Below are positions 1-64,000 of a stretch of DNA of 64,000 bases, piece by piece. The notes below the pieces were generated by a model. The model had not been told where the DNA came from. It saw only the letters and a list, made by a program, of their open reading frames with translations, and did no database searches. Numbering within the stretch: position 1 is the first letter of the stretch; each line of letters starts with the position of its first letter. This DNA comes from Rubricoccaceae bacterium (GTDB lineage: Bacteria > Bacteroidota > Rhodothermia > Rhodothermales > Rubricoccaceae): positions 221,271-285,270 of the forward strand of contig CAWHWG010000001.1 of the NCBI GenBank assembly GCA_963832985.1, read 5' to 3'. The translations under genes were made by a program, and so were the position numbers.

Positions 1-704
1 GAAGGATGCGCCCGCCGGTGCCGTAGATGCCGATGCTCGACATCGGGATCGTGTCCTCGAGGCCGAGTTCGTCGCGCAGGAACGCCGCATCGATCGCGGT
101 AGATGCCGGTCTCGGGGATCGGCACCTTGAACCAGCGGCCCTCGGCCAGCCGGCTCCGGCTCACGGCGAGGTGCGGGTTGTCATCGCCCGACGAGGCCAA
201 CCGGGCCGCCACGGGCGGGCGGGGCACGCGCACCACGATTCGTCGAGCACGGATCAAGCGCCCGTCCTCGACGCGAAGCATCCGAAGAGACAGGCTGCCG
301 ACCAACTCACGACGGCGCTCGCCCAGGTTGACGACCTCCGCTGCCGACGCGTCGAGGCTGAGAGTAGGCGGCCTCGAGGTCGGACGAGAGGTTCACCTCC
401 TCGCCCTCGAAGGACACGACGGTGACCGCCGGTGGAACGGCGGAGCCGAGCGAGATCTCGTGTGACAGCGTGGCCCGACCTGCGCTGGCCAGCCCGATCA
501 GGTTCTCGAGTACGGCCTCCCGCGCGCTCGACTGCGTCCTCGAGGGGCGTCCGCCACCACGTCGTGACCTCGATGGTGATCGCGTTCGGGGTCGTCTCGA
601 GGACGCGAAGCGATGGGACGCTCTGGGACCTGCTCGACGTACTCAACCGGTGCCTGGGCAGAGGCCGCGACGGCGAGGGCGCAGAAGAGTGCAAGACGCG
701 ACAT
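1..704 (-). CDS. porU: Type IX secretion system sortase PorU (C25 family), 5' part; runs off the window; apparent frameshifts
   Basis: Signal peptide MSRLALFCALAVAASAQA. Manual translation of 1-150 (minus) gives LAEGRWFKVPIPETGIYR/IDAAFLRDELGLEDTIPMSSIGIYGTGGRILP, matching the PorU N-terminal motif (LASGxWxKxxxxxxGIYxI...IYGxGGxxLP). Confidence 0.7.
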
Positions 705-1162
705 AGAGAGCGTGCGGGAGGCCCGAGGTGGGTGGGAACCTGTCGACGCGCAGCACAGGGGCTGCAGCGGGGCGTAGCACGAAACTCTCTTATACGCGGG
801 GTGGTGGTGGGCGCGGATCGAAGATACGGGAGCCCTCTGAACGCGGACAAGGCGCGCGGCCGTGCCCCGAGTGAGGGATTCGAGGATATCGACCTCGAGG
901 TCGACCCGCGGTGAGGACCAGATGAGGTTCGTTCGCCTGCGGCCTCAAAGCCTGTCGATCCGCGTTGAGACGCCGTCCACGGCCGTCGGGCGACGTAGCG
1001 CTGCATCCTCGAGGCCGAGGACCGACCTGAGGTCGCACCTCTGCCACTCTCGATGTTTCGGACCAGGGCCGTCGACGCCGGACTCGAGGCCGATTCTGGG
1101 CGCGGTGCCACGAGACCGAGGACCTCATCCCCTCTCCGACGACCGTCCTCGAGGACGGATCT

Positions 1163-2168
1163 CTAGCTGTTGATGTTCCGGTGGATCGCCTGCCGCGTCA
1201 GACCGATCCGCTCGCCGAGCTGGCTTCGGTTGTCGATGCCAGGGATACCGACGAAGCCGTTGACCAAGCTCGTGAGGTACTCCTGGCGGAGCTTGTTGAT
1301 CGGGATCGGACCCAGGATCTTCGCGATGTCGAGGTCGGCCAGTTCGCGGTGAGCGGCGGCGATGTCGCTTTCGATGCGGTCCTCGTGAGAAGGCCACGTC
1401 GGGATCGTATCGAGCGTCGCCTGCGCCTGCTGGTAGTACTCGAGGGCGAGACCGTAGAACTTGAAGTCGTAGTGGTAGATCTGCGCGAGCTGGTGAAGCG
1501 CGAATCCCTGCTCGGCCACGAGACCGTTGCGAGTCGCGAGCTCGTGCGCCTTTTGGATCGACTCCTCGCCCTCGTGGTGCTTGTCGAGCTTGACCTCAGC
1601 GAACCCCTTGTAGGTGAGGGCGCGCGGGATGTACTCCACCAGTCCGTTGCGTCGGCTCAGGTTGTAGACGCGCGTGCAGATCTCGATGCCCTGCTCGAAG
1701 TCGCCCTGCACCATCAGCGCCTGTGCTTTCTCGAGAAGCGCCGCGACCTCCCACGCTCGGCTCCCCAAACGGCGAGCCTCCTCGCGGACGCGGTCGAAGT
1801 ACTGAAGCGCCGCGGTGACACTCATCAGAGCGATGGCGCATGAGCCATCCGAGTCGGTAATCGAGGACGAGCGTCTGATAGGCATCCTGCGGGTCGACGA
1901 GCGCGAGTTCCGTCTTGGTCCGCTCGACGGGCGCGTCGCGGAGGCACCGGACCGCCTGAAGCTGAACGTGGGTCTGGAGGAGTGGATCGAGCGGAGCCTT
2001 GAGAAGCTCGTTGAACTCGAGATACGCGTCGTAGACCGCGGCCTGGGCGACGTGACCCACTGCGCGGTCCCATCGTTCGCGGACGGCTGCGGGCTGATCC
2101 GCGAGCGCGGCAGAGACACGGTCGATGTGCTCTTGCTCGTGGGCGGGGATCATCGGGGCGGAGGACAT
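1163..2168 (-). CDS. TPR-repeat protein with C-terminal Fis-like helix-turn-helix (one frameshift near 1815)
   Basis: Joins ORF 1596..2228 (from MSSAP) to ORF 1163..2119. TPR-like helices (ALHQLAQIYHY..LALEYYQQA); C-terminus DNRSQLGERIGLTRQAIHRNINS resembles HTH_8. Confidence 0.6.
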
Positions 2169-2292
2169 ACTCGTGTGGGCTCGGCGACAGACGCCACTTG
2201 GGTGCAGACGAGATATCGGTTCCGGCAACCGATCCGCTTAAGCGCTCTCGAACTCCATTCCGGTCCTGACGGAACGTTGTTCCGTCGCTTCG

Positions 2293-2841: not shown

Positions 2842-2871
2842 CGAGGGCGGGGCCAGAGCGAGAGCTGCCGG

Positions 2872-4086: not shown

Positions 4087-4119
4087 ACGTTTCGTAGAAG
4101 GCCCGCCGGCTCTCGAGGC

Positions 4120-5773: not shown

Positions 5774-5948
5774 GTGTACGGTCGCGTACTTGAGGCGATG
5801 CGCGAGGTTCTGCACCGTCCGTTTAGAGCGCGAGTCGACCTCGAGGACGCGACAGGGACGCCACTCGTGCCGAACGGAGCATGGCCGACCTCGAGGCCGG
5901 GTAGTCCTCGGCAGCGGCTCAGGGTAGCTTGGTGCACCCCCCGGTCCT

Positions 5949-8401: not shown

Positions 8402-9328
8402 CTACGCCGTCTCGTCGTCCTGAGATTCGGGAGCGTCGTCCTCGAGGCCGAGTCCGTCACCCAGCGAGCCGGGAGCGTCAAGCTGCGACGAGTCGACCTC
8501 GAGGACGGACTTCGCCTCGATGGGACGTGCGGGATTCTCGTCCTCGAGGCCGGATGCCAGCGTCTCGTCCTCGAGGTCGGATGCCAGCGTCTCGTCCTCG
8601 AGGTCGGATGCCAGCGTCTCGTCCTCGAGGTCGGCGCGCGGCTGGGCGTCATCCACGAGCCGGCCGCCCTCGAGGCGGAGGATCCGATCCGCCAGCGCGG
8701 CCAGCGCCGGGTTGTGCGTCACGACCACGAACGCCTGGTCGGCGTCGCGGCTCAGGCGAAGGAGTTCGTCGTGCAGCCGCTCGGCCGTCTTGACGTCGAG
8801 GTTTCCCGTCGGCTCGTCCATGAGCACGAGCCCGGGCTCGTTCATCAGCGCACGCGCCACGGCGACCCGCTGCTGCTCCCCACCGGAGAGCTGGCTCGGA
8901 CGGTGATCGAGACGGTCCTCGAGGCCGAGACTCGTCAGCAGCAGCCGAGCACGCGGGTCGGCCGTCTCGAACGTGCCGCCGGCGATCAGCGCCGGCATCG
9001 CCACGTTCTCGAGGGCGGAGAACTCAGGCAGCAGGTGGTGGAACTGGAAGACGAACCCGATGGCCTGATTGCGGAACGCCGCCAACGACTCGTCGCCCTT
9101 CGTGAACACGTTCTCACCCCGATACAGAACCGTCCCGGAGGTCGGCCGGTCGAGGGCGCCGAGAAGGTGAAGCAGCGTCGACTTCCCGGTCCCGCTCTCC
9201 CCCACCACAGCCACCAACTCACCGGGGTAGATGTCGACCTCGAGGCCGTCGAGGACGGTCAGGGTGCCGGCGGCGGTCGCGTAGCTCTTGGTCAGAGCGC
9301 GGGCGGAGAGGATCGCAGAGCGATCCAC
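8402..9328 (-). CDS. lolD: Lipoprotein-releasing ABC ATPase LolD with acidic repetitive C-terminal tail
   Basis: [66 protein letters not shown]; likely GTG start at 9328. Confidence 0.85.
8536..8634. repeat. 27-bp tandem repeat x3 plus a partial copy (encodes DLEDETLAS)
   Basis: cggatgccagcgtctcgtcctcgaggt at 8551, 8578 and 8605; each unit contains CCTCGAGG. Confidence 0.95.
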
Positions 9329-9474
9329 GGGAAGAGGCAGGGGGGGATGGGCAAGAGGCTCCGAACGGCTGCCTTCGGCCTCGAGGTCGTGCGAGACGGT
9401 GTCGGGACCGCTGCCGACCTCGAGGTCGGAAAAGGGACCTCTGCCTTCTGCCTCTTGCCGCTTGCCCTCGTTCA

Positions 9475-10845
9475 TCACTCTGGCCTCTCGATCTGCAAGT
9501 CCTTCAGCTTGTTGTACAGGTGCGAGCGCTGGATTCCGATCTTCTCGGCCGTCGCGGAGACGTTCCAGTCGTTCTCGTCCAGCTTGCGCTCGATGAACAG
9601 CTTCTCGGCCTGATCGCGAAACTCGAAGAGCAGATCGTACTTGTCGATGAGTCCGGCAGCCCCGCCGCTGCGCCCGGGCATCACGAACCGCTCGACGTCG
9701 GGCGTCGTGATCTCGTCCCCATCGGAGAGGATGAGAAGCCGCTCGACCACGTTGCGCAGCTCGCGGACATTGCCCCGCCAGTCATAATCGCGCAACCGGT
9801 CGAGTGCAGGGGGCGCAAATTGCTTGTCGGACATGCCGTTACGACGCATCACCTGACCCAAGATGAACCGAGCGATGTCCGGGATGTCATTTCGACGCTC
9901 CCGTAGCGGCGGGACGTGGATCAGGATGACAGAGAGCCGGTGGTAGAGGTCCTCGCGAAACAGCCTGGCGTCGACCTGGGCGAGAAGGTCTCGGTTCGTC
10001 GCAGCCACGACGCGAACGTCGACCGAGATCGAGCGGTCACCGCCGACGCGTGTGATCCGGCTCTCCTGGAGGGCGCGGAGCACCTTGGCCTGAGCGTCGA
10101 GCGACATGTCCCCGATCTCGTCCAGGAACAGCATCCCGCCGTCCGCCTGCTCAAACTTGCCGATCCGCTGCTTCGTGGCACCGGTGAACGCACCCTTCTC
10201 GTGACCAAACAGCTCGCTCTCGATGAGCTCCGACGGGATCGCCGCACAGTTGACCTCGACGAGCGGCCCGTCCGACCTCGAGGACTGCGCGTGCAGGTGC
10301 CGAGCCACGAGTTCTTTGCCCGTCCCCGCCTCCCCCGTGATGAGCACGCGCGCCTCCGACGGAGCCACGCGCTCGATGGTCTGCTTGATGCGCCCGATGG
10401 CCGGGCTGTCTCCCACGATGGGCGTCAGGTCCGACGAGCTCGTGTCCTTGACGACCTGCCGAAGCCGGGTGTTTTCGACCTTGAGTTGCCCGCGGTCGAG
10501 CGCGCCCCGGACTGTGACAAGCAGCCGGTTCATGTCCGGCGGCTTTTCCAGAAAGTCGACGGCGCCAAGCTGCGTGGCCTCGACGGCCGTCTCGACGGTC
10601 CCGTGACCCGAGATCATGACCACCGGCACGCCGGCCTCGATGTCGTGGAGCGCCTTGAGCACCTCCATGCCGTCCCGCTTCGGCATCTTGATGTCGAGCA
10701 GGACGAGGTCGACTCCCGCCCTCCCCTTCTCGAAGGCCTCGTCGCCGTCGACGGCCTCCTGAACGGTGTAGCCCTCGAACTCGAGGATCTCGCGGAGCAC
10801 GCGCCGGATGGCGGGCTCGTCGTCGGCGATGAGTACGGTGGGCAT
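9475..10845 (-). CDS. Sigma-54-dependent response regulator (NtrC/NtrX family)
   Basis: REC domain (LIADDE..LLDIKMP), [33 protein letters not shown]-terminal HTH. Confidence 0.95.
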
Positions 10846-11198
10846 AGGGCTGTCGAGAGAGGAGCGGGAAGCTAACAGCCAACGTGTCGCCCTCGAGGAC
10901 GCGGCTCGACCTCGAGGACAACACGTCGAAGACGATCTGCGATGTCGAGGGCGTCGAGGAAAGCGGTCTCCTTGGACCGCTGCCCGTCACCGGCTGGATA
11001 CCCTCCTGAGCCCATTCCCGCTCACGCGAGACTCGTAGGATGGCGAGAGAGAGACCCTCGCCGTCCTCGATGCCTGCGCTCGGTACCGACCCAGACCTCG
11101 AGGTCGACTTGCACGACACGAATCGTCACACACGATTCCTGCCACAGCGCGAATGACGGACTGTGGACAGATCCGCATCCACGTCCTCGAGGACGAGA

Positions 11199-12005
11199 CT
11201 ACTGGAGGTCTTCCGGCGTCAGCGTGTCGATGGCCGATTGCGTGGCCGTCGTCGTATCGGCCACGACGGGAGCCGGAGTGACGTCGCCTGTGGCCTCGCC
11301 CGAGGCGGACGCGGCGGCGGTCGCCGCGCCGAGCTCGACCTGTGCCGTGCTGGCTTCCGGCGTGTCCTCCCACTCCTCGACGATGCGCAGAAGCGCGGTC
11401 TCGGCCTCGCCAGCTTCGTTGGCTGCGAGGTGGGCGCGGGCGGCATCGAGCAGGTAGCCCGGCGTCGAGGCCGGCGACTCGAAGGCGTTTGCGGCACGCT
11501 CGTACAGACCGGCGGCCGTCGCGGCGTCGCCGTTCTGCTCCGCGATCGCGGCCTGGCCGGCGAGTGCGCTCGCTCCGATCAGGCCGGACCCACCGTAGTC
11601 CTCGAACATCTCGAGGGCGCGGTCGGTCTCTCCGAGCTGGTAGAGCGCGTCGGCCGCGAAGAAGGTGGCCTGCTCGCCCGTCGAGGTCGAGCCGTAGTCC
11701 TCAGCGATCTCCAACAGGCCCGGGGTCGTGTCGGTCCCATCGAGGGCGGCCTGGTAGTTCCCCGCCTCATACTCGGTCAGGATGGCACCCAGTAGCTCCT
11801 GCGCCTCCGAGGAGCGGTTCGACTGGTACGCGCGCCACGCCACAATGGCCACAGCGAGCAGCACGAGGCCACCGATGACCCCGATGATCACGTTGCGGTT
11901 GTCCTCGAAGAACTCCTGGCTCCGCGAGACTCGGAGCGCGGCGTCGTCACCGAAGTCAGAGGAGTGGGAGGGTGTAAGCGGCTTGGGAGGATTGATCTGA
12001 GCCAT
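11199..12005 (-). CDS. Membrane-anchored TPR protein (YfgM-like)
   Basis: FFEDNRN, single TM segment, TPR helices, IAEDYGSTSTG. Confidence 0.75.
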   Translation of the reverse strand: MAQINPPKPLTPSHSSDFGDDAALRVSRSQEFFEDNRNVIIGVIGGLVLLAVAIVAWRAYQSNRSSEAQELLGAILTEYEAGNYQAALDGTDTTPGLLEIAEDYGSTSTGEQATFFAADALYQLGETDRALEMFEDYGGSGLIGASALAGQAAIAEQNGDAATAAGLYERAANAFESPASTPGYLLDAARAHLAANEAGEAETALLRIVEEWEDTPEASTAQVELGAATAAASASGEATGDVTPAPVVADTTTATQSAIDTLTPEDLQ

Positions 12006-19359: not shown

Positions 19360-19703
19360 GGCACCCCCTCCACGACTCTGACGCCCTCGGTAGCTGGCCT
19401 GCCGAGGGCGTTTTGCGTCGCAGCTCGATGTCGACTGGGACGCGACGCTAGAAACGGTGCAAAGACTCTAAACGAGCGCCTCGGGCCGACCTCGAGGTCG
19501 CTGGCGCGGTCCGAGGATGCTGAAACGAACGGGTGGACAGAACCGCCGACCTCGAGGTCGGAGGCGACGACATGCGCTCGAGGACTCAAACAGCCTCGTC
19601 TGCACACCGGCGCGTTGAGGGCGACCTCGAGGGCGGAAGCGGGATCGATGCTTCGAGGCCGAACGGAGGCAGGCTACCTTCGCCCTCCCCCGCCCCACCG
19701 CCC

Positions 19704-24021: not shown

Positions 24022-24058
24022 CGAGAAAAGCGGAGCCGGTCCGACCTCGAGGTCGGGC

Positions 24059-24523
24059 CTACGACCGAATGCCGCGTCGCTGGAGCGAGGCCTCGCGCTT
24101 CCCCTCGGCCGTCGTGTGACGATGCGCGTAGGCGCCCAAGATGGTGCCCCAGATGCCCACGTTCATCATCAGCGTGAGCATGATCGCCGCAGAGTCGCCC
24201 CCCGCGAACATGGGCCGGCCTCGAATGCTGGGCCACCCCGCGAGCGCCCACAACGTCGGGAGGAGAGCATAGACCATCGCGCTGGCAATCGTCGGGCGGG
24301 GAACGAGGGTGAATGGGACGCCCCAGAGCGTCCCGATGGCGAGGAAGGCCGCTCCGCCCAGTACGGTCGCCGTCAGCCAGCCGCCTCCAAACACCTCCTG
24401 CCACGCGCCGACGAACGGGGCCTTGGACGTGAGCCCAACCAGAACCAGCAGTCCAAAGATGCCAGCCACCGCGACCGCACCGAGAAAAGCGCCGATGAGG
24501 GTGGACCGAAAGATGGGATGCAT
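24059..24523 (-). CDS. Hypothetical membrane protein (about 4 TM)
   Basis: Hydrophobic 154-aa ORF from MHPIFRST. Confidence 0.6.
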   Translation of the reverse strand: MHPIFRSTLIGAFLGAVAVAGIFGLLVLVGLTSKAPFVGAWQEVFGGGWLTATVLGGAAFLAIGTLWGVPFTLVPRPTIASAMVYALLPTLWALAGWPSIRGRPMFAGGDSAAIMLTLMMNVGIWGTILGAYAHRHTTAEGKREASLQRRGIRS

Positions 24524-24599
24524 GATGCCAGGAGTGATGGAGACCGCGTGCCCGCCAAGCTCGCCCTCGAGGACGGTCGCTGCCGCCAAGAGATGACTC

Positions 24600-30406: not shown

Positions 30407-30509
30407 CCGGTCCGACCTCGAGGGCGCACTCAGCGTCCCCATCCGCGACCTCGAGGTCGGCAGCGTGAGGCCCTGTGCGGTACGTTGCCGCATCCCTCCT
30501 CCGACCTCG

Positions 30510-31004: not shown

Positions 31005-31050
31005 CGGTCTCGTCCTCGAGGACACACTGGCTCCGCCCTCGAGGACGACT

Positions 31051-36699: not shown

Positions 36700-36773
36700 T
36701 GCGCCCGAGAGGATTCGAACCTCTGACCTCTTGATTCGTAGTCAAGCACTCTATCCAGCTGAGCTACGGGCGC
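36700..36773 (-). tRNA. tRNA-Arg(ACG)
   Basis: GCGCCCGTAGCTCAGCTGGATAGAGTGCTTGACTACGAATCAAGAGGTCAGAGGTTCGAATCCTCTCGGGCGCA folds as a cloverleaf with anticodon ACG; CCA not encoded. Confidence 0.97.
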
Positions 36774-38374: not shown

Positions 38375-38416
38375 GCGGGGACGGTGACCTCGAGGTCGGA
38401 GCCGCCCTCGAGGACG

Positions 38417-44653: not shown

Positions 44654-45666
44654 TACAGCGTGACGGGGAAGCTCTGATCCGGTAGCTTCGCCGCTCCGTG
44701 CTGCCCATGGCGATCTCGACCGACCTCCGCCGCCGCGCCGTCGATGCCTACGAGCGCGGAGATGGCTCTCTGCCCACCGTGGCCGCTCGATTCGCCGTCG
44801 GCGAGGCGTCGCTCGGACGCTGGCTCCGGCGCAAGCGCGAGACCGGATCCGTCGAGCGTGCGCCCCGCACCGGCGGCAATCCGCGCCGCGTCACGCCCGG
44901 CGGCGAGGCACTCCTGCGTGCGTGGCTCGACGAGGATCCGTCGGTGGCACAGCACGTGCTCGCCGCCCGGCTGGCGGACGCCGGCGAGCCTGCGGTCTGC
45001 CAGCAGACTGTGAGCCAGACGCTGGCCCGGATGGCGCTGACGCTCAAAAAAAGTCCTTCCGAGCCGTCCAGCGACTCCGACCTGACATCGTAGAGGAGCG
45101 TGAGGCGTTCGCCGCTTGGCAGCCGACCATCGAGGGATCACGCGTGGTGTGCGTCGACGAGCGCGGCATCGTCGCCGGAGGTCGGGTCTCGTACGGCTAC
45201 GCGCCTCGAGGTGAGCGCTGCGAGGAGCACGCACCGTATCGCAAAGGGCGTCGGACGAGTTTGCTCGGCTGGGTGGGCCTCGGGCGTGGCGGGGTGGTCG
45301 CTATCGAAGGCTCGGTCAACAGCGACGTGTTTGAGCACTTCGTGCGCGACCACCTCGCGCCGAAGCTGAGGCCGGGTGACATCGTGATTTGGGATAATCA
45401 CTCGGTCCACAAGCGGCCGGAGCTACGAGCGCTGATCGAGGCGCGCGGGGCGGCGTTGGTGTGGCAGCCGCGCTACTCGCCGGAGTTCAATGCTGTCGAA
45501 GAGATGTGGTCGAAGGTGAAGCACCTCGTCAAGCGTGCGCGGGCCGACACCGCAGCGGCGCTGACCGGAGCGCTGGCAGCAGCCGTGGCTGCGCTGACGT
45601 GGGAGGACTCGCTCGGCTGGCTGTGCCACGCGGGCTACCGGATCAGTCCTACCGAGTAACGCTGTA
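44654..45666 (+). mobile_element. IS630-family insertion sequence with TA target duplication (CTAG target)
   Basis: Imperfect terminal IRs TAcagcgtgacggggaagctctgatccggtagc and (reverse complement) TAcagcgttactcggtaggactgatccggtagc; TA at 44654-55 and 45665-66. Confidence 0.92.
44707..45659 (+). CDS. IS630 transposase, two ORFs joined by a -1 frameshift at A7G (45046-45053)
   Basis: HTH MAISTDLRRRAV...; DDE part VCVDE, VIWDNHSVHK, PRYSPEFNAVEEMWSKVK; ctcaaaaaaagtcc slippery site. Confidence 0.9.
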
Positions 45667-48111
45667 GAGGCCGAACGTGACTGTCGCTTCGTTGGCCTGC
45701 AACGTCCATTCCAACCGAACGACGACCGCTCCCACGGTCGAGGTCGTCACTAGGTCATCGGAGGGCACAACGATGCCATCCACCCGCACAGGTCCGAAAG
45801 CGGTTGGCGAGACTACTTCCACCTCCACTCTCTGGCCAACCACACCTACGAGATGGACCATCAACGCGTCCGCTGACCGCGTCACCGACTCTACGCGGCC
45901 CGTCGCCGCACTTAGGTAAGGCGCCTCGGGCATACCACGATCGAGTTCGATGTGCGAGGCGGTCCCTAGTACGACGGCGGATGGCGATTCGACACCATCG
46001 ATCACGATGCGGCGGAACGTTGTCCCTCTGCCTGACCACGTCACCCAGGTGGTCTCCCCGCCAATGGCGAGGTCGTATGCGACAGCGTCAAACCCCTCCG
46101 GAAGCATCGGGCTAAACGACAGGTTCCACGGTGTCTCGCGGACGCCCGCGAGTTGGTACAGAACGTTCAGGAACCAGCCACCTGCCCACAGAAACGTTGG
46201 CTTGTCGATCGCGCCGTACGCCGTCGAGGTCGTATCTGCATTGCGGTACTCGTAGAACGCAGGCTGGCCATTCGGGCTGTCCTCTACTCCTGCGACGCTG
46301 AGATAACGCGTCAGCACATCGCGGGCCTCGCCCACTCGTCCAGCCGCGATCAGGCCAAGCGAGTACCACGCGTTTCCTTGTGGCCATACGCCGCCATTCA
46401 TGTACACGCCTGGTGTGCCGACCTCCCCTTCTTGGAACTGGTACACGTCGGTCAGCAAGTGATAGTCAATCGGCATGGCGTTGCGGACACCGACGTTCTC
46501 GTCCAGCAGCTCTCGCCGCGCCGTGTTGAGCAACGTGTCGCGTTTCCCATCATCAAGCAGGCCGAACCATGCTGCTACCAGCGAGCCGGTGTAGTAGTGG
46601 CGGTCTGTGCGGGTCGAGTCGAGGCCGTTCAGGAGATAACCCGCCTCCTCATCCCACAAGTCGTCGACAAGGGCGCGGCGCATCCGGTCGGCGCGCTGGA
46701 CGAGGTCAGCCAGATCGGCGCTGTCGCGACCGAGCGTCAGCGTGAGGCTTGCGTAGGCGTCCAAGGCTCGGATCGCGAGCGCGGTGAGGTATGAGCGGGG
46801 ACCGGGGACATGACCGATATCCCACCAGTCCGGCCGTTCGGCCACCATCAGCCCGTCACGCTCATTGGCGAGCATCAGCGCCATGCTCTTCTGGAGCGTC
46901 GGGTATAGCGCCTCGACCGTCGCCGTGTCGCCACTATGCTGGAGGTACGAGGCCGCCAAGATCACCACCCATAGGTGGTTCCAATTGTCCGCGTTCGCGG
47001 GCTCAACGACATACGCACCATCCTTCCAGTAGCGCGCGTGAGGCAAGATCGAGTCCGCGCGGACGAGGGACTGTACGTAGAGGAGGTCGTCGCGGACGCG
47101 GGCGAGGTCGAAGTGGACAGCACCCAGGTCGGTCAACAGGAGGTCGTGGGTAAAGAAGAAATTGTATTCGGCTGGGCTGGGCATCGGGACAAGGCGCCCC
47201 TCCAGCATGTGCCGGTCTGCGCGTAGTAGCGCTCGTGACAGGCGGTTGGTCTCTTGGAGCGCTGGATCCAGCCCCTCGAAGCGGCCCACGTCCCGCACGT
47301 AGGTCCGGATGGCGTCCTCCGTTGCCTCCACCGCCCCGGCCCACCCCCTCTCAGCGCGCTGACGGACGGCCTCGACATCCCGCTGTCGGCTTGTCCCGAT
47401 GAGTTGCGTGACGACAAGGGAGTCACCGGGCGCGAGGTCGCGGGTGTAGCGAAACGCAGAGGTGGAACCTGCAGGTTCGCGCCCAGCGTCGGGGGCGGCT
47501 CCGACGTTGGAAACAAACATGGACACCGAGTCGGTGTCTGCGGCGTCGTAGGACGCAATGAATGCCGATCCGTCACCCGCGAATGCCGTCCGCGTCGGCT
47601 CGCGAGAGGTGTAGGTGTGGGAGGTACGCAGCGTCAGGTCCATTCGGGCGTCCACCTCGAACGAGGCACGGCGGCCGGTCCGGTTCACCAGCGTGAACTG
47701 CAAGACGACGATGGGCAGGTCGTCGGGGAAGCGGTACGAAAGGGTGCCGTCATAGAGCGGCGTCTGGCCGTGGAATTTGACCGCGTAGGGCGTCCAGTGG
47801 TAGGCCCAAGGCGATGTGCCCAACGTGTCGGCCTCGCCGTCGACGCGAACGATGAGAGTCAAGGGCCGCGACTCGCCCCGTTCCCAATACCCGGTGCTTA
47901 GATCAAGGCTGTTGGCGACCGGGTCGTAAAAGCTGATCCGCGCCGGGACCGGTCGGCTGTCGTGAAACTCGACACCAGCGTACGCGCCGCCCACCTCCAC
48001 CTGTCCGCGTAGCCCGTCGAAGGCGACCGACAACGTGTCGCGCCCCTGGGAGTAGGCGCCAGGGGCAAGGAGTACAAGCAGGACGAACGCCGGCGCAAGG
48101 AGACGGAACAT
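45649..48111 (-). CDS. Secreted six-hairpin (alpha/alpha)6 glycoside hydrolase-like protein
   Basis: Signal peptide MFRLLAPAFVLLVLLAPGAYS-Q; YNFFFTHD, Y..HSGD...EALYP, PDWWD, LWDEEAGY, YMNGGVWP, FYEY, FLWAGG motifs. Exact GH family not assignable by eye. Confidence 0.75.
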   Translation of the reverse strand: MFRLLAPAFVLLVLLAPGAYSQGRDTLSVAFDGLRGQVEVGGAYAGVEFHDSRPVPARISFYDPVANSLDLSTGYWERGESRPLTLIVRVDGEADTLGTSPWAYHWTPYAVKFHGQTPLYDGTLSYRFPDDLPIVVLQFTLVNRTGRRASFEVDARMDLTLRTSHTYTSREPTRTAFAGDGSAFIASYDAADTDSVSMFVSNVGAAPDAGREPAGSTSAFRYTRDLAPGDSLVVTQLIGTSRQRDVEAVRQRAERGWAGAVEATEDAIRTYVRDVGRFEGLDPALQETNRLSRALLRADRHMLEGRLVPMPSPAEYNFFFTHDLLLTDLGAVHFDLARVRDDLLYVQSLVRADSILPHARYWKDGAYVVEPANADNWNHLWVVILAASYLQHSGDTATVEALYPTLQKSMALMLANERDGLMVAERPDWWDIGHVPGPRSYLTALAIRALDAYASLTLTLGRDSADLADLVQRADRMRRALVDDLWDEEAGYLLNGLDSTRTDRHYYTGSLVAAWFGLLDDGKRDTLLNTARRELLDENVGVRNAMPIDYHLLTDVYQFQEGEVGTPGVYMNGGVWPQGNAWYSLGLIAAGRVGEARDVLTRYLSVAGVEDSPNGQPAFYEYRNADTTSTAYGAIDKPTFLWAGGWFLNVLYQLAGVRETPWNLSFSPMLPEGFDAVAYDLAIGGETTWVTWSGRGTTFRRIVIDGVESPSAVVLGTASHIELDRGMPEAPYLSAATGRVESVTRSADALMVHLVGVVGQRVEVEVVSPTAFGPVRVDGIVVPSDDLVTTSTVGAVVVRLEWTLQANEATVTFGLYSVTR

Positions 48112-48316
48112 CGACCCCGCAGGGGACGACGAACGGCGTGGAGGGGTAGCGGTAGACATGGTCGAGTGTAAAAGAGGGAGAAGGAGATCCATGTCCGCAC
48201 GAGTCGCCATGACGGGCAGCGTCCTGTCACACCCCGCCTGCCGGAAGGCCTTCCATCGCCTAGAACCTTGCCCGTTGCGCGATCCACACTTGCGTAGCCC
48301 GAAGGTAGACGTTTCA

Positions 48317-48332
48317 ATCGAAGCGCTTCGAT
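48317..48332. promoter_or_regulatory. LacI-type operator 1
   Basis: Perfect 16-bp palindrome ATCGAAGCGCTTCGAT with central AAGCGCTT, upstream of the glycosidase. Confidence 0.75.
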
Positions 48333-48779
48333 GTTTGACATGACCTCCTCGTCGGGGCTCAAGGTCGAGGACGGGATCATGGTTCGCCCAGGGTTCGCCG
48401 GTCTGTGGCTTCAAGGATGATTCGCGCCCTCGAGGACGGGTCGCCCTGGGCACGTCATGCCGTACCCCTACCTACCCAATGCCATGTTCGCCCTGGAGGT
48501 CGGATCATCCTCGAGGGCGCAACAGTGGTGGGCCGTCCTCGAGGGCGAATCAGTCGGAGCGGAGGGCGCGGACGGGGTCGGCGATGGCTCTCTTGAGGTT
48601 CTGGATCGAGGCGGAGGCGAGTTAGGCGTCGTCCTTGTCGCATATGGCTCGTAGCCGACCCCTCTAGAAAGCAGCCTTGGTGTGCCCGCCCCCCTTTAGA
48701 ACACGTCGGCTCGTGATCCGACGACTGCAGGGTAATTCTCGCACGGCCGGCACGAGTCGCTGCTGAGTATCGCCGAGAG

Positions 48780-48916: not shown

Positions 48917-49942
48917 ATGTCAAGCCGAGTGACCATCTCCGACGTTGCCGCGAAAGCTGGAGTCTCCATCTCGACGGTATCGCTCGTGATGAACGGGAAG
49001 GGGTCCGTTGCCGACGCAACACGCTCTCGCGTCCAGTCCGCTGCCACACGACTGGGGTACACGCCCTCGAGGACGGCGCGAGGGCTGGCCGCGGGCCGGA
49101 CGGGCAACCTGGGGTTCGTGCTCCGCGATGATCACTTCCGGCAGAGCGAGCCCTTCTACACTCGCGTCTTCCTAGGTGCTGAGTTTGAAGCGAGGCGACG
49201 GGGTCTGTACGTGCTCCTTTCGACAGTTCCTGAGCACTACGACGCGAGCCACGCGCCGCGCTTCTTGCAGGAGCACAGCGTCGACGGCGTGGTGGTCGCG
49301 GGCCGCGTCGACGACGGATTCCTCGACGCTCTCAGGCGGTCTGGCATCCCCTTCGTGCTGACCGATTATGCGTACGGGACCGCGCCCTCGGTCCAGGTGG
49401 ACAATGAGGGCGGGGCGCGTCTGGCGGCGACTCACCTGCTCGAGCGCGGGTACACCACGTCGGCCTTTGTCGGAGGAGACCGTGACCACCCGAGCATGTC
49501 TGCGCGGTGTCACAGTTTCGTGTCCGCCATGGCTTCTGCCGGACACCCCGTTGGGGAGTCCGGGATCGTTACGGACATCGGGGCGGCGGACCGACCGACC
49601 GGGGCGCGGCTGGGTGCGAGGCTTCTGGACGCAGCGGATCGCCCGCACGCGGTGTTCTGCGGCAACGACGCCTTGGCACTGGGTGTCCTTGACGCGGCTC
49701 GCGCTCGGGGCCTGAGCGTCCCGGGCGACGTGGCCGTCGTCGGATTCGACGACGTCGAGGGCGCTGCGCTGTCCGACCCTCCCCTGACCACGATCCGTGT
49801 GTGCAAAGAGCAACTCGGGGAGGTCGCCCTAGGGATTTTGGCCGAGCGCACGGCGCCGACGAACCCTGGTGACGCCCGCTTTGACCGAGCACCCTCGATC
49901 ACGTCGATCACTACGGACCTCATCGTGAGGGCCTCGAGCTAG
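48917..49942 (+). CDS. LacI family transcriptional regulator
   Basis: VTISDVAAKAGVSISTVSLVMN, LGYTP, FCGNDALALG, VPGDVAVVGFDD, PPLTTI. Confidence 0.96.
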   Translation: MSSRVTISDVAAKAGVSISTVSLVMNGKGSVADATRSRVQSAATRLGYTPSRTARGLAAGRTGNLGFVLRDDHFRQSEPFYTRVFLGAEFEARRRGLYVLLSTVPEHYDASHAPRFLQEHSVDGVVVAGRVDDGFLDALRRSGIPFVLTDYAYGTAPSVQVDNEGGARLAATHLLERGYTTSAFVGGDRDHPSMSARCHSFVSAMASAGHPVGESGIVTDIGAADRPTGARLGARLLDAADRPHAVFCGNDALALGVLDAARARGLSVPGDVAVVGFDDVEGAALSDPPLTTIRVCKEQLGEVALGILAERTAPTNPGDARFDRAPSITSITTDLIVRASS

Positions 49943-49965
49943 TCCACATTCGTTTTCCGGTCGAG

Positions 49966-49985
49966 TTGACCTGGAAGCGCTTTCC
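49966..49985 (+). promoter_or_regulatory. LacI-type operator 5 adjacent to a -35-like TTGACC
   Basis: TTGACC-TGGAAGCGCTTTCC, about 20 bp upstream of the ATG at 50007. Confidence 0.65.
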
Positions 49986-50006
49986 CTATTCCACTCCTAC
50001 ACTCTC

Positions 50007-52571
50007 ATGATTCGATCGTTACTCCGCACCCTTCCAGCGGCTGCGCTGCTGTGGTGCTCCCTGCCCGCTCACGCACAAGACGCGGCTTCGATGGCCGCAA
50101 CCAATAAGCTCCAAGATGGAGGCTTCGAGGGTGACCGTCCATCGTACTGGGCGTCATCGGGCGCCGGCGCGACGTGGTCGACCGCTCAGGCCCACTCCGG
50201 CACCCACAGCCTCGCCCTCTCCGGCACCGCCGCGGCGTCCTGGACGCAGGCCGAGGTCATCCAAAACTGGGAGTCCGGCTTCGAGGCCAACACCGCCCTG
50301 ACGCTCGGCGCGTGGGTCTTCACCGACGGCGTCAACACGGCGCCCGGTAGCGACGACGCCAAGTTCCAGATCGCCTACACCTTCCGCGACGCCGACGGCG
50401 CCGACATCCTGGGCCAGGAGGTCGTCATCGACCTGCCGCAGACGGCGGCCTCGACGGGCGGCTGGGTGAACGTGAACACCGCGGGTCTCGGTGAGATCAC
50501 GCTGCCGGTCGACGCCAAGAGCGTGACCGCGGTCGTGCGCAAGGGCTCCGCGGCGACGGGCACCGTGTACGTGGACGACTTCTACGTCAACGCCAACACG
50601 TGGCACGGCGCGAACGTGGACCTTCCGGCGGACTGGTACACGTTCTGGCCGGGCTTCGACGGCGGCGTCGAGGACCCGCAGTGGATCATGGCGAAGACGA
50701 CCGACGAGGCGCACACGGGCGCGGCGAGCCTGCGCGTCGAGCGGCTGGGCAGCCCGACCGACGTCGAGGGTGAGGCCGTCGCCATCTCCGAACGCGTGCC
50801 CGTCACGGTCGGGAAACCCGTCCTCGTCAGCTACTGGGTCAAGACAGACGACAACGCCACACCTGCGGAGATCGGCACCGGCGACAACAACGTGGGCCTC
50901 ACCGCACTGTGGTACAGTTCTCTAGAGAGCGGCGTGGCTGGGTACAACGAGCTCGGCGGAGCAGACATCCGTCTCAACGGCGAGTACAACCCGCAGGTGA
51001 TCCCGCTCCTCCCCCGCCAGGCCGACAACGGGTGGACCCAATACTCGTTCGTCGTCAACCCGATCGAGAACGCGGTCGGAATGGAGCTTCGCCTCCGGTA
51101 CTGGCACCAGTTCACCGGCACGACCTACTGGGACGACGTCGTGATTGCTGACGTCGAGGACGTGACCATGGAGCTTCCGAACCTGCTGTCGGAGTCGGCA
51201 CAGGGGTTTGAAGGCGACCGTCCATCGTACTGGGCGCCATCGGGCGCCGGCGCGACGTGGTCGACCGTCCAGGCCCACTCCGGCACTCACAGCCTCGCCC
51301 TCTCCGGCACCGCCGCGGCGTCCTGGACGCAGGCCGAGGTCATCCAAAACTGGGAGTCCGGCTTCGAGGCCAACACCGCCCTGACGCTCGGCGCGTGGGT
51401 CTTCACCGACGGCGTCAACACGGCGCCCGGTAGCGAAGACGCCAAGTTCCAGATCGCCTACACCTTCCGCGACGCCGACGGCGCCGACATCCTGGGTCAG
51501 GAGGTCGTCATCGACCTGCCGCAGACGGCGGCCTCGACGGGCGGCTGGGTGAACGTGAACACCGCGGGTCTCGGCGAGATCACGCTGCCGGTCGACGCCA
51601 AGAGCGTGACCGCGGTCGTGCGCAAGGGCTCCGCGGCGACGGGCACCGTGTACGTGGACGACTTCTACGTCAACGCCAACACGTGGCACGGCGCGAACGT
51701 GGACCTTCCGGCGGACTGGTACACGTTCTGGCCGGGCTTCGACGGCGGCGTCGAGGACCCGCAGTGGATCATGGCGAAGACGACCGACGAGGCGCACACG
51801 GGCGCGGCGAGCCTGCGCATCGAGCGGCTGGGCAGCCCGACCGACGTCGAGGGTGAGGCCGTCGCCATCTCCGAACGCGTGCCGGCGATGCAGGGCGAAC
51901 CGATGTTGGTTTCGTACTGGGTCAAGACGGAAGACAACGCCACACCTGCCGAGATCGGAACGGGTGACAACAACGTCGGGATCACGGCGCTGTGGTACTC
52001 GTCGCTCGAGTCTGGCGCTGCAGGCTACAACGAGCTCGGCGGAGCAGACATCCGTCTCAACGGCGAGTACAACCCGCAGGTGATCCCGCTCCTCCCCCGC
52101 CAGGCCGACAACGGATGGACCAACTACGCCTTCGTGCTCAACCCGATTGAGAACACGGCAGCGATGGAAGTCCGCCTCCGGTACTGGCATCAGTTCACCG
52201 GCACGACCTACTGGGACGACATCGCGATCACCAACATTGCAGGAGACAACCTCTTCGCAACGGCTGGCGAGAGCGGCCCTGGTTCGAACGGTCCCGACGG
52301 CACTCGCGCCACGTGGCTGAGCCCGAACGCTCCGAACCCGTTCTCGGACCAGACCGAGGTGCGCTTTACACTTCCACAGGCAGAAGACGTCACCCTCGAG
52401 GTCTACGACCTGCTGGGCCGCCGCGTGGCGCTCTTGGCCGACGGCGTACCGATGGCCGCGGCCGACCACGCCATCGCGTTCGACGCTGCCGAGGCAGCCA
52501 GCGGGACGTACATCGTCGTCCTGAGGACGCCGACGCACACCGAGGCCCGCCGAATCACGCTGGTCCGCTAG
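50007..52571 (+). CDS. T9SS-secreted protein with duplicated CBM4/9-like modules and a type A C-terminal sorting domain
   Basis: Signal peptide AHA-Q; repeated GFEG..W...AHSGTHSL...VYVDDF and AHTGAASL...TYWDD modules; CTD PNPFSDQTEVRFTLP..VTLEVYDLLGRRV...SGTY. Confidence 0.85.
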   Translation: MIRSLLRTLPAAALLWCSLPAHAQDAASMAATNKLQDGGFEGDRPSYWASSGAGATWSTAQAHSGTHSLALSGTAAASWTQAEVIQNWESGFEANTALTLGAWVFTDGVNTAPGSDDAKFQIAYTFRDADGADILGQEVVIDLPQTAASTGGWVNVNTAGLGEITLPVDAKSVTAVVRKGSAATGTVYVDDFYVNANTWHGANVDLPADWYTFWPGFDGGVEDPQWIMAKTTDEAHTGAASLRVERLGSPTDVEGEAVAISERVPVTVGKPVLVSYWVKTDDNATPAEIGTGDNNVGLTALWYSSLESGVAGYNELGGADIRLNGEYNPQVIPLLPRQADNGWTQYSFVVNPIENAVGMELRLRYWHQFTGTTYWDDVVIADVEDVTMELPNLLSESAQGFEGDRPSYWAPSGAGATWSTVQAHSGTHSLALSGTAAASWTQAEVIQNWESGFEANTALTLGAWVFTDGVNTAPGSEDAKFQIAYTFRDADGADILGQEVVIDLPQTAASTGGWVNVNTAGLGEITLPVDAKSVTAVVRKGSAATGTVYVDDFYVNANTWHGANVDLPADWYTFWPGFDGGVEDPQWIMAKTTDEAHTGAASLRIERLGSPTDVEGEAVAISERVPAMQGEPMLVSYWVKTEDNATPAEIGTGDNNVGITALWYSSLESGAAGYNELGGADIRLNGEYNPQVIPLLPRQADNGWTNYAFVLNPIENTAAMEVRLRYWHQFTGTTYWDDIAITNIAGDNLFATAGESGPGSNGPDGTRATWLSPNAPNPFSDQTEVRFTLPQAEDVTLEVYDLLGRRVALLADGVPMAAADHAIAFDAAEAASGTYIVVLRTPTHTEARRITLVR
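50133..52219 (+). repeat. Intragenic direct duplication, period 1083 bp (361 aa)
   Basis: gaccgtccatcgtactgggcg at 50133 and 51216; near-identical for about 670 bp, then a patchwork of identical and diverged blocks. Confidence 0.93.
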
Positions 52572-52577
52572 GGAATC

Positions 52578-52716
52578 GTCCTCGAGGTCGGGCACTGTCG
52601 CTCGGCCTCGAGTCTTGCTGAACGAACGTCCTCGAGGCCGGAGCATCGGTTGCTCGACCTCGAGGACGGTGGGACTGGCGTTCGTCCTCGAGGCCGCATA
52701 CATCGACCTCGAGGAC
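52578..52716. repeat. Intergenic cluster of CCTCGAGG palindromes
   Basis: Copies at 52580, 52630, 52658, 52686 and 52707, plus a one-mismatch copy at 52606. Confidence 0.9.
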
Positions 52717-52769
52717 GGATGATGGTCCGCTTGACGGAGCCCCGTACGGGCGCAGACGACACCACCACT

Positions 52770-58855: not shown

Positions 58856-58859
58856 TCCC

Positions 58860-59892: not shown

Positions 59893-59901
59893 CCCCAGGC
59901 C

Positions 59902-62172: not shown

Positions 62173-62175
62173 CCG

Positions 62176-63000
62176 ATGCAAACCTCCCCCTTCCGTACCG
62201 GTTTGGCCTATGCGACGCTCATCGTGGGCGCCGTCGTATTCGCGTACCCGTTCGTCTGGATGGCGCTGGCGACGTTCAAGCCCGAGGCCGACATCGCGGC
62301 GCTCAACCCGTTCCCGTCCGAGTGGACGACGGAGAGCTACCGGCTGGTGTTCGGGTCGGTGCCACTCGGGCGGTCGTTCCTGAACTCGGTGCTGGTGACG
62401 GGCGTGGTGACGGCGTTGGCCCTGGTGTTCGGGTCGCTTACCGCCTATGGCCTGTCGCGGCTCACGTGGAAGGGCCGCGACGCCGCGTTCTCGGTCATCT
62501 TGTTCACGATGATGGTGCCGTTCCTGGTGCTACTCATCCCGCTGTACACGCTCGTGGTGGGGTTCGGGTGGACGGACAGCTATGCGGGCCTCATCGTGCC
62601 GTTCATGATGAACGCGACGGCCGTGCTCATCCTGCGCCAGCACTTCGTGACGTTGCCCCAGAGCCTCGTCGACGCCGCCCGGATCGATGGGGCGGGCGAG
62701 CTCAGAATCCTCTTCCAGATCGTCTGGCCGGCCTCGGTGCCAGCACTCGTCACCGCTGGGATCCTGGCGTTTATCGGGAGTTGGAACGAGGTGCTGTGGC
62801 CGCTGATGGTCATCCGGGAGCAAGAGATGATGACGATGCCTCAAACGGTCGCCCTGTTCGCCGTCGGCGGCGGCGCCGAAGGCCGGCTCGGTCCCCAGCT
62901 CGCGGCAGCCCTCCTTCTGGCCGTCCCCATTATCGCGGCATACCTCGTGTTTCAACGCCGGTTTGTCGAAAGCCTCGCCACCAGCGGCCTCAAAGGATGA
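62176..63000 (+). CDS. Carbohydrate ABC transporter permease (MalG-type)
   Basis: FLNSV, LRQHFVTLPQSLVDAARIDGA, WNEVLWP, FQRRFVESLATSGLKG. Confidence 0.93.
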   Translation: MQTSPFRTGLAYATLIVGAVVFAYPFVWMALATFKPEADIAALNPFPSEWTTESYRLVFGSVPLGRSFLNSVLVTGVVTALALVFGSLTAYGLSRLTWKGRDAAFSVILFTMMVPFLVLLIPLYTLVVGFGWTDSYAGLIVPFMMNATAVLILRQHFVTLPQSLVDAARIDGAGELRILFQIVWPASVPALVTAGILAFIGSWNEVLWPLMVIREQEMMTMPQTVALFAVGGGAEGRLGPQLAAALLLAVPIIAAYLVFQRRFVESLATSGLKG

Positions 63001-64000
63001 CCCGTCTCGTTCCTCTCCTCGCTCTGCTCGCCCTCTCTGCGTGCCGCGAGTCTCCACTCCCTAGAACGGCGGAGCCGAGCAGCTCAACGACCGCCCAGGC
63101 CGACCTCGAGGCCGCGGGCTTCAACCTCGATCACCTCGATTTCTTGGGCGAGGACGTCGTCCTCGAGGGCGACACCTTGCGGCTGATCCACATCTACGCC
63201 GAGCCCGACGGCGAGGGCGGCTGGGAGTTCGTGGGCGACCACGACGAGGGGTTAGCCTGCGTTGACGACGTGGCTCGGGCGGCCGTCGTCTACCTGCGCC
63301 ACTACGAGGAGACGGGCGACGACGCCTCACGGCGCACCGCCGTCAAGCTGCTTCGGTTCGTCCGCCACCTCCAGGCCGAGTCGGGCCTGTTCTACAACTT
63401 CGTGTGGGACCGCGAGATGCGGCCCAACACGACGTTCCGTACCTCCGTCGCGACCGATGTGTCGTGGTGGACAGCCCGGGCCGTCTGGGCGCTCGCACTT
63501 GGAGCTCGCGTCCTGGAAGACGAGGATCCGGTCGAAGCTCGCGCCGCCCTCGAGTCCGTCCGCCGCGTCGAGCCACATCTGGACGCGCTCCTGGTCCGCT
63601 ACGGCGAGACAGCCCTCGAGGACGGACGGCCGTACCCCCAGTGGCTGATCGCCGAGACCGGCGCCGACGCAACGAGCGAGCTGCTGCTCGGCTTGGTTGA
63701 ACTCGAGCGCGTGGCACCGACGCCGGAGGGCGCTCGCCGCGCCCAGCAATTCGCCGAGGGCATCGGCTCTCTCCGATTCGGGTCACTCTCCGAGTTGCCA
63801 TGGGGCGGGCACGCCTCCTGGGAGGGCGGCTGGCACGGCTGGGGCAACAGCCAGACTCAGGCCATCGCCTCGGGCCGTGCAGCAGACGTGCTTCCCGAGG
63901 CCACCCTGGCGGGCGTCGAGGCCGAGGCGAGGACACTCTACGCGCACTTGCTCGTCGAGGGCTGGCTCCATGAGATCACCTACGCGACGGGAGCGGAGCG
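62997..64000 (+). CDS. Lipoprotein with a putative six-hairpin glycosidase-like domain; runs off the window end (not in the ORF track)
   Basis: Manual translation MTRLVPLLALLALSAC...IHIYAEP...DEGLACVDDVARAAVVYL...GLFYNFVW...WWTARAVWAL...WHGWGNSQ; ATGA overlap with the permease stop. Confidence 0.7.
   Translation, partial: MTRLVPLLALLALSACRESPLPRTAEPSSSTTAQADLEAAGFNLDHLDFLGEDVVLEGDTLRLIHIYAEPDGEGGWEFVGDHDEGLACVDDVARAAVVYLRHYEETGDDASRRTAVKLLRFVRHLQAESGLFYNFVWDREMRPNTTFRTSVATDVSWWTARAVWALALGARVLEDEDPVEARAALESVRRVEPHLDALLVRYGETALEDGRPYPQWLIAETGADATSELLLGLVELERVAPTPEGARRAQQFAEGIGSLRFGSLSELPWGGHASWEGGWHGWGNSQTQAIASGRAADVLPEATLAGVEAEARTLYAHLLVEGWLHEITYATGAE

Follow-up and report, generated by a model that had tools for sequence, protein, structure and literature searches.

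We analyzed a window of 64 kb from a bacterium of the genus Rubrivirga (Rhodothermales; G000:C1:221271-285270) and found that this stretch, like the assembly it comes from, is densely populated by a palindromic octamer, CCTCGAGG, which forms the core of a 14-bp word, CGNCCTCGAGGNCG. The word is quite possibly one dialect of a genus-wide family that resembles HIP1 (highly iterated palindrome 1) from cyanobacteria and bacterial uptake sequences, maintained by a directional process that is specific for the sequence, with a secondary use at gene ends; we favor this reading tentatively. It is supported by an excess of copies that codon usage does not account for, the presence of different words in related species, the origin of copies by point substitution, and a hotspot immediately past stop codons.

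An over-represented palindrome and its extent

The window contains 173 exact copies of CCTCGAGG, against a mean of 4.1 (standard deviation 2.05, maximum 10) in dinucleotide-preserving shuffles, an enrichment of ~42-fold. An initial annotation made from the letters of the window had counted about 170 copies, which our count bears out, and had put the enrichment at ~60-fold; the strong excess stands and the figure comes down. The annotation's guess at the taxon also holds, the genus being Rubrivirga. Genome-wide k-mer counts against Markov nulls, suggested with that annotation, agree: the G000 assembly (2.45 Mb, 6 contigs, 66.7% GC, 66% complete) carries 7189 copies, one per 340 bp, where models of order 0, 1, 2 and 3 predict 94, 149, 343 and 830, respectively. 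CCTCGAGG is the most abundant 8-mer of G000, with ten times as many copies as the next palindromic 8-mer (690); it makes up 2.3% of the assembly by itself and encloses 73% of all CTCGAG sites.

A position matrix of the G000 copies shows that the real unit is the 14-mer CGNCCTCGAGGNCG, with the flanking C present in 84–88% and the flanking G in 87–90% of copies and no consensus past 14 nt; the matrix is identical within and outside genes. The full 14-mer occurs 4423 times (62% of the octamer copies). Within the window, 118 of the 173 copies (68%) have this form and 145 (84%) match GNCCTCGAGGNC, in keeping with the earlier remark that most copies extend beyond the octamer. As had also been proposed, the two N positions vary independently: genome-wide, both are near-uniform and nearly independent, and neither shows a preference for complementarity to the other. 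This freedom, together with the unique spacer DNA that separates most intergenic copies (90% of spacers, see below), fits the suggestion that the word is a gapped site recognized by a protein, and not a repeat that was copied. One-mismatch forms of CCTCGAGG, described as common at the outset, number 209 in the window. Across G000, position-2 variants are enriched 5–9-fold and the C-to-T neighbor at the central CpG, CCTTGAGG/CCTCAAGG, is enriched 4.7-fold; position-3 variants and the two position-4 transversions stand at expectation (~1-fold). Copies are clustered, with over-dispersed spacing between next neighbors (coefficient of variation 1.37, which measures nearest-neighbor spacing and not periodicity).

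Related species carry different words

We then compared G000 with 20 Rubrivirga congeners (21 genomes in all, the congener words coming partly from sampled loci). This comparison across the genus, which the initial annotation had advised, shows that a single congener, G002, shares the word at comparable density (10117 octamers and 6337 full 14-mers), and that the others carry different words or none. The remaining congeners have at most 89 14-mers each, and the maximum among 400 other genomes of the phylum is 22. G009 has the asymmetric word CCGCCTCGGGG (7423 copies in 4.7 Mb, where its reversed control has 25), which occurs at 3.5 per kb outside genes and 1.2 per kb inside, without strand skew on any contig. 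The word of G016, CCGCCCCGCCC, measured through its core 10-mer CCGCCCCGCC in 459 kb, reaches 2.4 per kb in genes and 9.95 per kb outside, densities almost equal to those of G000 (given below), and its strands are balanced in every 60-kb bin of a 360-kb contig. In G016 spacers, at about 10 per kb, the word often stands as inverted pairs. G019 carries CCGCCAGCGGG at 1.8 per kb, with an observed-to-expected ratio (O/E) of 106. Weaker versions occur in sampled loci of G003, G004, G005, G006, G014, G017 and G020; no word was seen in G001 (Rubrivirga sp. IMCC43871), G007, G008 or G018 (IMCC45206) when these were sampled for frequent words, G001 and G018 being complete genomes.

All four distinct words of the genus begin with CCGCC/CGNCC and diverge over the six bases that come after it; when aligned on CCTCG, the G009 word departs from the G000 14-mer at three positions. 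The palindrome can be read as the half-word CGNCCTCG fused head to head. A tree built on two proteins pairs G000 with G002 as sisters (100/100) and puts G009 and G016 in another clade. As the asymmetric words of congeners are distributed in the same way, palindromy characterizes one lineage and is not the factor common to the phenomenon.

Excess beyond codon usage, inside and outside genes

Genes of G000 were called from open reading frames with a self-trained codon score and cover 84% of the assembly. About 70% of copies lie inside genes (in the window, 118 in called genes and 54 outside). Shuffling synonymous codons, which keeps both protein and codon usage, yields 1318 ± 30 coding copies where 4707 are observed, a 3.6-fold excess; shuffling codon order yields 370 ± 17, and a dicodon Markov model predicts 1141 main-frame copies where there are 3937. 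Between 82 and 84% of coding copies fall in the frame xxC CTC GAG Gxx, which encodes [DAGV]-L-E-[DAGV]. Among the dipeptides of G000, Leu-Glu ranks third in over-representation (O/E 1.68; Glu-Leu, 0.66), and it is written CTC-GAG in 82% of cases, where codon usage predicts 43%.

Outside genes the word is denser still. In spacers of 20–350 bp flanked by confidently called genes, CCTCGAGG is found 10.0 times per kb (2.5 times in genes), with a frequency that depends on spacer type: 16.1 per kb in convergent, 9.6 in co-directional and 6.6 in divergent spacers. Word density thus follows constraint, rising from genes through divergent and co-directional to convergent spacers. Among genes it is nearly flat, with a minimum of 1.66 per kb in the top codon-bias decile versus 2.4–2.9 per kb elsewhere. 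We also considered whether copy-free genes are deserts left by horizontal transfer; long copy-free genes have typical codon scores (0.263 versus 0.267), and we rejected this idea.

The initial annotation had named a dicodon-preserving shuffle and the intergenic background as the places where the enrichment might vanish. The excess survives the synonymous-codon, codon-order and dicodon nulls, and spacers carry four times the coding density. These results rule out a compositional or codon-usage artifact of a GC-rich genome, in which CTC and GAG codons flanked by GNC codons would assemble the word by chance. Such an artifact would explain the single preferred frame, and CTC and GAG are indeed the preferred Leu and Glu codons of G000; we nevertheless give it practically no chance, as 18 of the 20 congeners, similar in composition, have at most 89 14-mers against 4423 in G000, and the wider phylum has hardly any.

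Copies arise by point substitution and persist in place

To follow individual copies, we aligned 33.5 kb of G000 to its sister G002 (79% identity), with two word-poor congeners as outgroups. Copies of G000 are in place in G002 at 49 of 94 sites, and at 32 of 52 in a first sample (52–62%); the corresponding values are 23% for all 8-mers and 27% for GC-rich CpG-centered 8-mers. A copy is therefore about two times more likely than a control word to be kept at its site. The same alignment holds 45 word sites found only in G000 and 25 found only in G002, some of which required 3–5 changes, which shows that both lineages gained copies after their split.

The outgroups typically have 2–3 mismatches to the word at word sites, against 5–6 at random positions, and gains that can be polarized (sister identical to outgroup) involve from 1 up to 4–5 substitutions within 8 bp. 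Coding copies align to their orthologues without gaps and therefore originated by substitution, not by insertion. Where a G000 copy encodes Leu-Glu, the outgroups have this dipeptide as well at no more than 6 of 44 sites; the common precursors are LD, IE, VE, LQ, LS and LA. Copies thus arise by point substitution, usually with a conservative amino-acid change.

Spacer sequence evolves too fast to align, and some G000 spacers contain extra DNA that bears copies. Of the spacers between intergenic copies, 90% are unique; 75 of 736 cluster, and these are other small repeats. Because the DNA between copies is unique, the word is not part of a longer mobile unit, and a longer mobile repeat or miniature inverted-repeat transposable element was rejected on this ground and on the absence of consensus past 14 nt. 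The small intergenic repeats of G000 (for example at C3:203232, C6:471702 and C1:120066, outside the window) comprise a GC-rich hairpin type, CATCCCCGCGAAGGCGGGGATCC, a second family, CCCCTCTCCCGCGGGGAGAGGGG, and a CT-rich repeat, CCTCTTCTCTTCCGCACCTCTTCTCGCATTCC.

A hotspot immediately past stop codons

The octamer starts 3–7 nt past the stop codon in 284 of 1422 G000 genes (~20%), with the 14-mer 0–4 nt past the stop. This peak reaches 5–7 times the spacer baseline and is also present in genes followed by spacers of 100 nt or more (139 of 576). The flanks of stop-adjacent copies, which make up ~5% of all copies, are conserved at 87–95%. There is no peak of the word ahead of G000 start codons, and word-free congeners have no motif past their stop codons. 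An adjacent copy accompanies 26% of TAG, 15% of TGA and 12.5% of TAA genes. TAG is also the commonest stop of G000 (677 of 1422 called genes; TGA 513, TAA 232), which is unusual at 67% GC; congener samples have many TAG stops as well, and in the window TAG stops lie at 1163, 11199, 24059, 31002, 38417 and 52569.

The asymmetric dialects reveal an orientation that the palindrome conceals. At co-directional gene ends of G016, 72 sense and 17 antisense copies lie within 20 nt of the stop, against 81 and 68 farther away; in G009, the first 10 nt past the stop hold 17 copies in one orientation and 7 in the other. Because a purely DNA-level drive does not predict an orientation-specific hotspot at stops, this pattern points to a role linked to transcripts or transcription. 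Gene-end placement forms a second layer, and points to co-option of the word as a gene-end signal at the transcript 3' end or in termination, much as uptake sequences came to be used in terminators (bioRxiv 10.1101/2025.10.24.684340). Stop-adjacent copies were gained independently in G000 and G002.

No T-run follows the stop-adjacent copies of G000, and a second copy lies within 70 nt of a stop-adjacent copy only at the rate expected from spacer density. Hairpin pairing between adjacent copies was considered and rejected: their N positions are complementary in 17–31% of cases, which is about chance, and T-runs are lacking here too. The first 50 nt past the stop fold at -19.1 kcal/mol when an adjacent copy is present, versus -15.6 kcal/mol.

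Methyltransferases and XhoI-type enzymes of the genus

The initial annotation had attributed creation and maintenance of the word to a methylation-linked system. This attribution is not borne out: we found neither a methyltransferase that fits nor Vsr in the carriers, and congeners have asymmetric words. A search for an orphan CTCGAG/TCGA methyltransferase distributed along with the word, also proposed at that stage, found none in G000 or G002. In G000 (66% complete), families PF00145, PF01555, PF02384, PF07669 and PF02086 had no match; in G002 (88% complete), the only DNA methyltransferase-like genes are two of the MmeI-like type IIL restriction-modification (R-M) kind (loci L016, G002:C180, and L013, G002:C229). 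At these levels of completeness the methyltransferase absences are provisional. Vsr was found in none of the five genomes that we searched.

The genus does have a complete R-M pair of the XhoI type, with an Eco57I plus TaqI_C methyltransferase encoded directly upstream of an XhoI-family nuclease. The methyltransferase is gamma-class with a TaqI_C domain (loci L060, G007:C5:1522742-1526320, and L061, G016:C22:46979-50554). The pair was found only in G007 and G016, both without the CCTCGAGG word; in G016 the octamer even falls below its reversed control (115 versus 165). No homologue of this methyltransferase was found in G000 or G002. XhoI-type nucleases thus circulate among these species, and the word would leave the G000 lineage very vulnerable to them.

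Mechanism and alternatives

The 14-bp CGNCCTCGAGGNCG accumulates in G000 DNA directionally, by point substitution and within the limits set by constraint. We propose that a sequence-specific protein reads the word, as a symmetric dimer in the lineage of G000 and G002, and that a local process at near-cognate sites favors the word over its neighbors. Candidate processes are a bias in repair or conversion, or a preference for the word in uptake and recombination, in the manner of DNA uptake sequences (DUS) and uptake signal sequences (USS). The outcome may be a molecular drive held in check by purifying selection. A local bias of the repair or conversion type fits the densities better than a fragment-level uptake bias, though no enzyme for it was found. 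Uptake is possible; ComEC is present genus-wide, and ComEC, PilB-like and PilT-like ATPases occur in nearly all 21 genomes. Natural competence in the absence of type IV pili is known from some Bacteroidota.

Several observations weigh against this proposal. A bias in the uptake of whole fragments should already have been saturated at the densities seen, which are one copy per 340 bp overall and one per 100 bp in spacers. We identified no protein that reads or writes the word, and neither a methyltransferase, nor Vsr, nor a motif-flanked REP-associated tyrosine transposase (RAYT; REP, repetitive extragenic palindrome) was found, gene absences being provisional in a 66%-complete genome with imperfect gene calls. 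The type IV prepilin family PF07963 was not found in G000, G001, G002, G009 or G016, although controls were positive, and a prepilin pattern scan of G000 found none; because a canonical prepilin is lacking, there is no sign of the uptake route known for DUS/USS. Across the genus, ComEC, PilB/PilT-like ATPases and RecC are widespread and do not separate word-bearing from word-free species. Finally, the orientation-specific stop hotspot is unexpected under a purely DNA-level drive. A bolder combination can be envisaged: a fast re-targeting word-writing system whose reader drives near-cognate DNA to a species-specific word of 11–14 nt (a constant CCGCC-like half plus a variable half, here in palindromic fusion), the same word serving right after stops as an orientation-dependent gene-end signal, that is, a termination or 3'-end code that differs between sister species. 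We regard this combination as speculative and rather doubtful.

A signal acting primarily on RNA or transcription is an alternative that we also consider doubtful, if worth keeping in view. A factor of termination or 3'-end formation, such as a Rho-type loader or an RNA- or DNA-binding protein, would bind the word with high affinity; past the stop the word would end or stabilize the transcript, genic copies would be harmless when translated and would silence untranslated or antisense transcripts, and the palindrome would serve both strands. This explanation makes sense of a sharp hotspot 0–4 nt past stops in three species with three different words, of the 4:1 preference for sense within 20 nt of stops in G016 (1.2:1 beyond), of the lowest word density in genes of the top codon-bias decile, and of the somewhat stabler fold past the stop; the G016 and G009 words are moreover C-rich at the 5' end in sense orientation. 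It sits poorly with the small share of copies that are stop-adjacent, with genic copies about equal in both orientations in G009 and G016, and with the lack of T-runs and of extended hairpin covariation between adjacent copies, and it would require positive selection for each of thousands of amino-acid-changing gains. To our knowledge, exact Rho-loading words of 11–14 nt have not been described. Methylation, in which the word would be built around the target of an orphan CTCGAG/TCGA methyltransferase and generated by methylation-linked repair as proposed for HIP1, has in its favor that the core is the XhoI/PaeR7I site, that HIP1 variants track methyltransferases in cyanobacteria (PMC4390886), and that about a third of the G000 genome is unassembled; the 4.7-fold C-to-T neighbor at the central CpG would fit deamination of a modified cytosine and is the only hint left. 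Set against these are the five methyltransferase families without a match in G000, the solely MmeI-like genes of G002, the missing Vsr, the confinement of the XhoI-type enzyme and nuclease to species without the word, and the similar distribution of asymmetric 11-mers in congeners. The provisional methyltransferase absence and the asymmetric dialects together make this model unlikely, and because congener words are non-palindromic, a palindromic type II methylation target is not the common denominator.

Two further alternatives were considered. The word might be a Chi-like self-marker, read by a DNA-end-processing nuclease so that self DNA is shielded, with an arms race against phages shifting the specificity and phages copying the word. 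The genus has RecC, dialects change rapidly from one congener to the next, and three viral contigs carry CCTCGAGG at 1–2.3 per kb, one with similar flanks. These contigs, L150 (IMGVR_UViG_3300030433_002109), L181 and L114, have direct terminal repeats, and two are rated complete; L150 has 28 copies within 6.25 kb, with cGT..cCG flanks. Yet the proteins of these contigs lack homology to G000 and to the congeners sampled and no host is assigned to the contigs, the words exceed every known Chi in length and, by far, in density, word-free G001 has RecC as well, and the asymmetric words show no replication-strand skew along the G009 contigs or 360 kb of G016. We therefore find a self-marker quite improbable; the strand balance in G009 and G016 likewise led us to reject the polarity of Chi or of FtsK-orienting polar sequences (KOPS), a test that applies to the asymmetric dialects and not to the palindrome. 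Less probable still is a REP/RAYT-like or miniature mobile element spread by transposition. Enrichment downstream of genes and in convergent spacers, species-specific words, Y1 transposase genes in G016 and G002, and the extra copy-bearing DNA of some G000 spacers could be read in this way, but most copies are genic, only 14 nt are conserved between largely unique spacers, and coding copies are gap-free against their orthologues and hence due to substitution. A link to RAYT was ruled out: Y1 genes were not found in G000 or G009, and the Y1 loci of G002 and G016 are not flanked by the word.

Comparison with known systems

The likeness to HIP1 claimed in the initial annotation is supported by the excess beyond codon nulls, the enrichment in non-coding DNA, the conservation in place and the amino-acid changes that copies impose. 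HIP1 (GCGATCGC) and the alternate HIPs of cyanobacteria have, like the G000 word, a palindromic octamer core with palindromic extensions (PMC4390886, PMC5861425). HIP1 and the G000 word are both over-represented at least 40-fold, at up to ~3 copies per kb, in coding and non-coding DNA, with enriched one-mismatch forms and variant words in related lineages. HIP1 is conserved between genomes beyond control words and palindromes (PMC5861425), and the G000 word is likewise in place at 52–62% of sites versus 23–27% for controls and enriched in both genes and spacers. The two differ in that HIP1 uses all three reading frames where the G000 word has 82–84% of coding copies in one, and in that HIP1 has co-distributed orphan methyltransferases where none was found for the G000 word, provisionally given the incomplete assemblies. 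The Rubrivirga case is set apart further by another word in another phylum, non-palindromic words in related species, the stop-adjacent hotspot and a spacing CV of 1.37.

Dialects are also known for the DUS of Neisseriaceae (PMC3630211), and USS have been described in Pasteurellaceae (PMC1939737); about half of uptake sequences lie in terminators, and they show reading-frame bias (bioRxiv 10.1101/2025.10.24.684340). The Rubrivirga words resemble uptake sequences, which are words of 9–12 nt, in having species-specific dialects with a common core, equal strands, frame bias, an amino-acid cost, a preference for gene ends, a share of the chromosome that reaches the percent level and accumulation by point substitution. 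They differ in that the G000 dialect is a perfect palindrome and 3–10 times denser, and in that uptake sequences form inverted pairs in terminators with U-tracts, whereas G000 stop-adjacent copies are mostly single and without T-runs. DUS/USS systems moreover have a type IV pilus with a word-binding minor pilin (ComP) or an equivalent receptor, and no type IV pilin or ComP-like receptor is detectable in the five Rubrivirga genomes searched.

REP/RAYT systems share with the Rubrivirga word species-specific palindromes concentrated downstream of genes, but REPs are 20–40 nt long, extragenic and flank a RAYT gene, whereas the G000 word is 14 nt, mostly genic and flanks none. Very-short-patch repair by Dcm/Vsr in E. 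coli enriches CCWGG through a local, sequence-specific bias toward the word at near-cognate sites. A local drive of this kind, being non-saturating, would fit the densities in G000; unlike Dcm/Vsr, the Rubrivirga system has no Vsr or C5 methyltransferase that we could find, its enrichment is orders of magnitude stronger and its word is longer.

Our literature search turned up no description of a word of this kind from Rubrivirga or Rhodothermales; the octamer CCTCGAGG appeared in cloning primers only, and no paper joined Rubrivirga and palindromes. What is new relative to published work on HIP1 and DUS/USS is the phylum, the coexistence of palindromic and asymmetric dialects in one genus, and the orientation-specific hotspot past stops. 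The function of HIPs has been open since the 1990s and the evolution of uptake sequences is still debated. Rubrivirga offers a natural experiment within one genus: two sisters share a palindrome, at least three species have asymmetric words, several have weak ones and four have none. This spread permits phylogenetic profiling for the reader protein, and the asymmetric dialects permit orientation tests that are impossible with a palindrome. The range of mechanisms is narrowed, since the phenomenon needs neither palindromy nor methyltransferases, and the hotspot suggests a testable link to transcript ends. The word also marks native DNA and pushes proteins toward [DAGV]-L-E-[DAGV].

Individual sites in the window

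The table gives the copies and arrays of the window that illustrate these patterns.

Table. Copies of the word, arrays and copy-free stretches in the 64-kb window
Feature	Position	Strand	Remarks
All exact copies of CCTCGAGG	55..63621	.	exact match; n = 173, 118 as CGNCCTCGAGGNCG
Intergenic five-copy array	52572..52720	.	copies at 52580, 52630, 52658, 52686, 52707; CG(T/A)CCTCGAGG(N)CG flanks, mutually unrelated spacers
Stop-adjacent copy	52580..52587	+	TAG (52569-52571) of gene 50007-52571, + 8 nt
Stop-adjacent copy	38406..38413	-	14-mer begins right after TAG (38417-38419) of gene 38417-39247 (minus)
Stop-adjacent copy	11185..11192	-	TAG of gene 11199-12005 (minus), + 6 nt
Stop-adjacent copy	24045..24052	-	TAG of gene 24059-24589 (minus), + 6 nt
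Stop-adjacent copy	31014..31021	+	TAG of gene 30198-31004, + 9 nt
Stop-adjacent copy	1147..1154	-	TAG of gene 1163-2119 (minus), + 8 nt
Four tandem 27-bp units, one copy each	8533..8640	-	copies at 8542, 8569, 8596, 8623; C-terminal coding part of ABC-ATPase-like gene 8402-9478
Spacer with ~110 nt of extra DNA	5816..5948	.	copies at 5839 and 5889; conserved flanks enclose 9-16 nt in G001 and G002
Spacer 3' of an intrinsic-terminator-like hairpin	19360..19532	.	copies at 19490, 19550, 19625, plus decayed copies
Longest copy-free stretch (3.3 kb)	49073..52393	.	in large gene 50007-52571
Second-longest copy-free stretch	45212-48427		

The sister species G002 also has a copy right after the stop orthologous to that at 11185..11192, with other flanks. 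The spacers of G002 and G001 orthologous to 19360..19532 hold no copies, and the sister species has no tandem repeat at the place of the 27-bp units. A look-up by exact protein sequence for one gene of the window gave no match. The sole Rfam match in the window is a tRNA gene at 36700-36773 on the minus strand.

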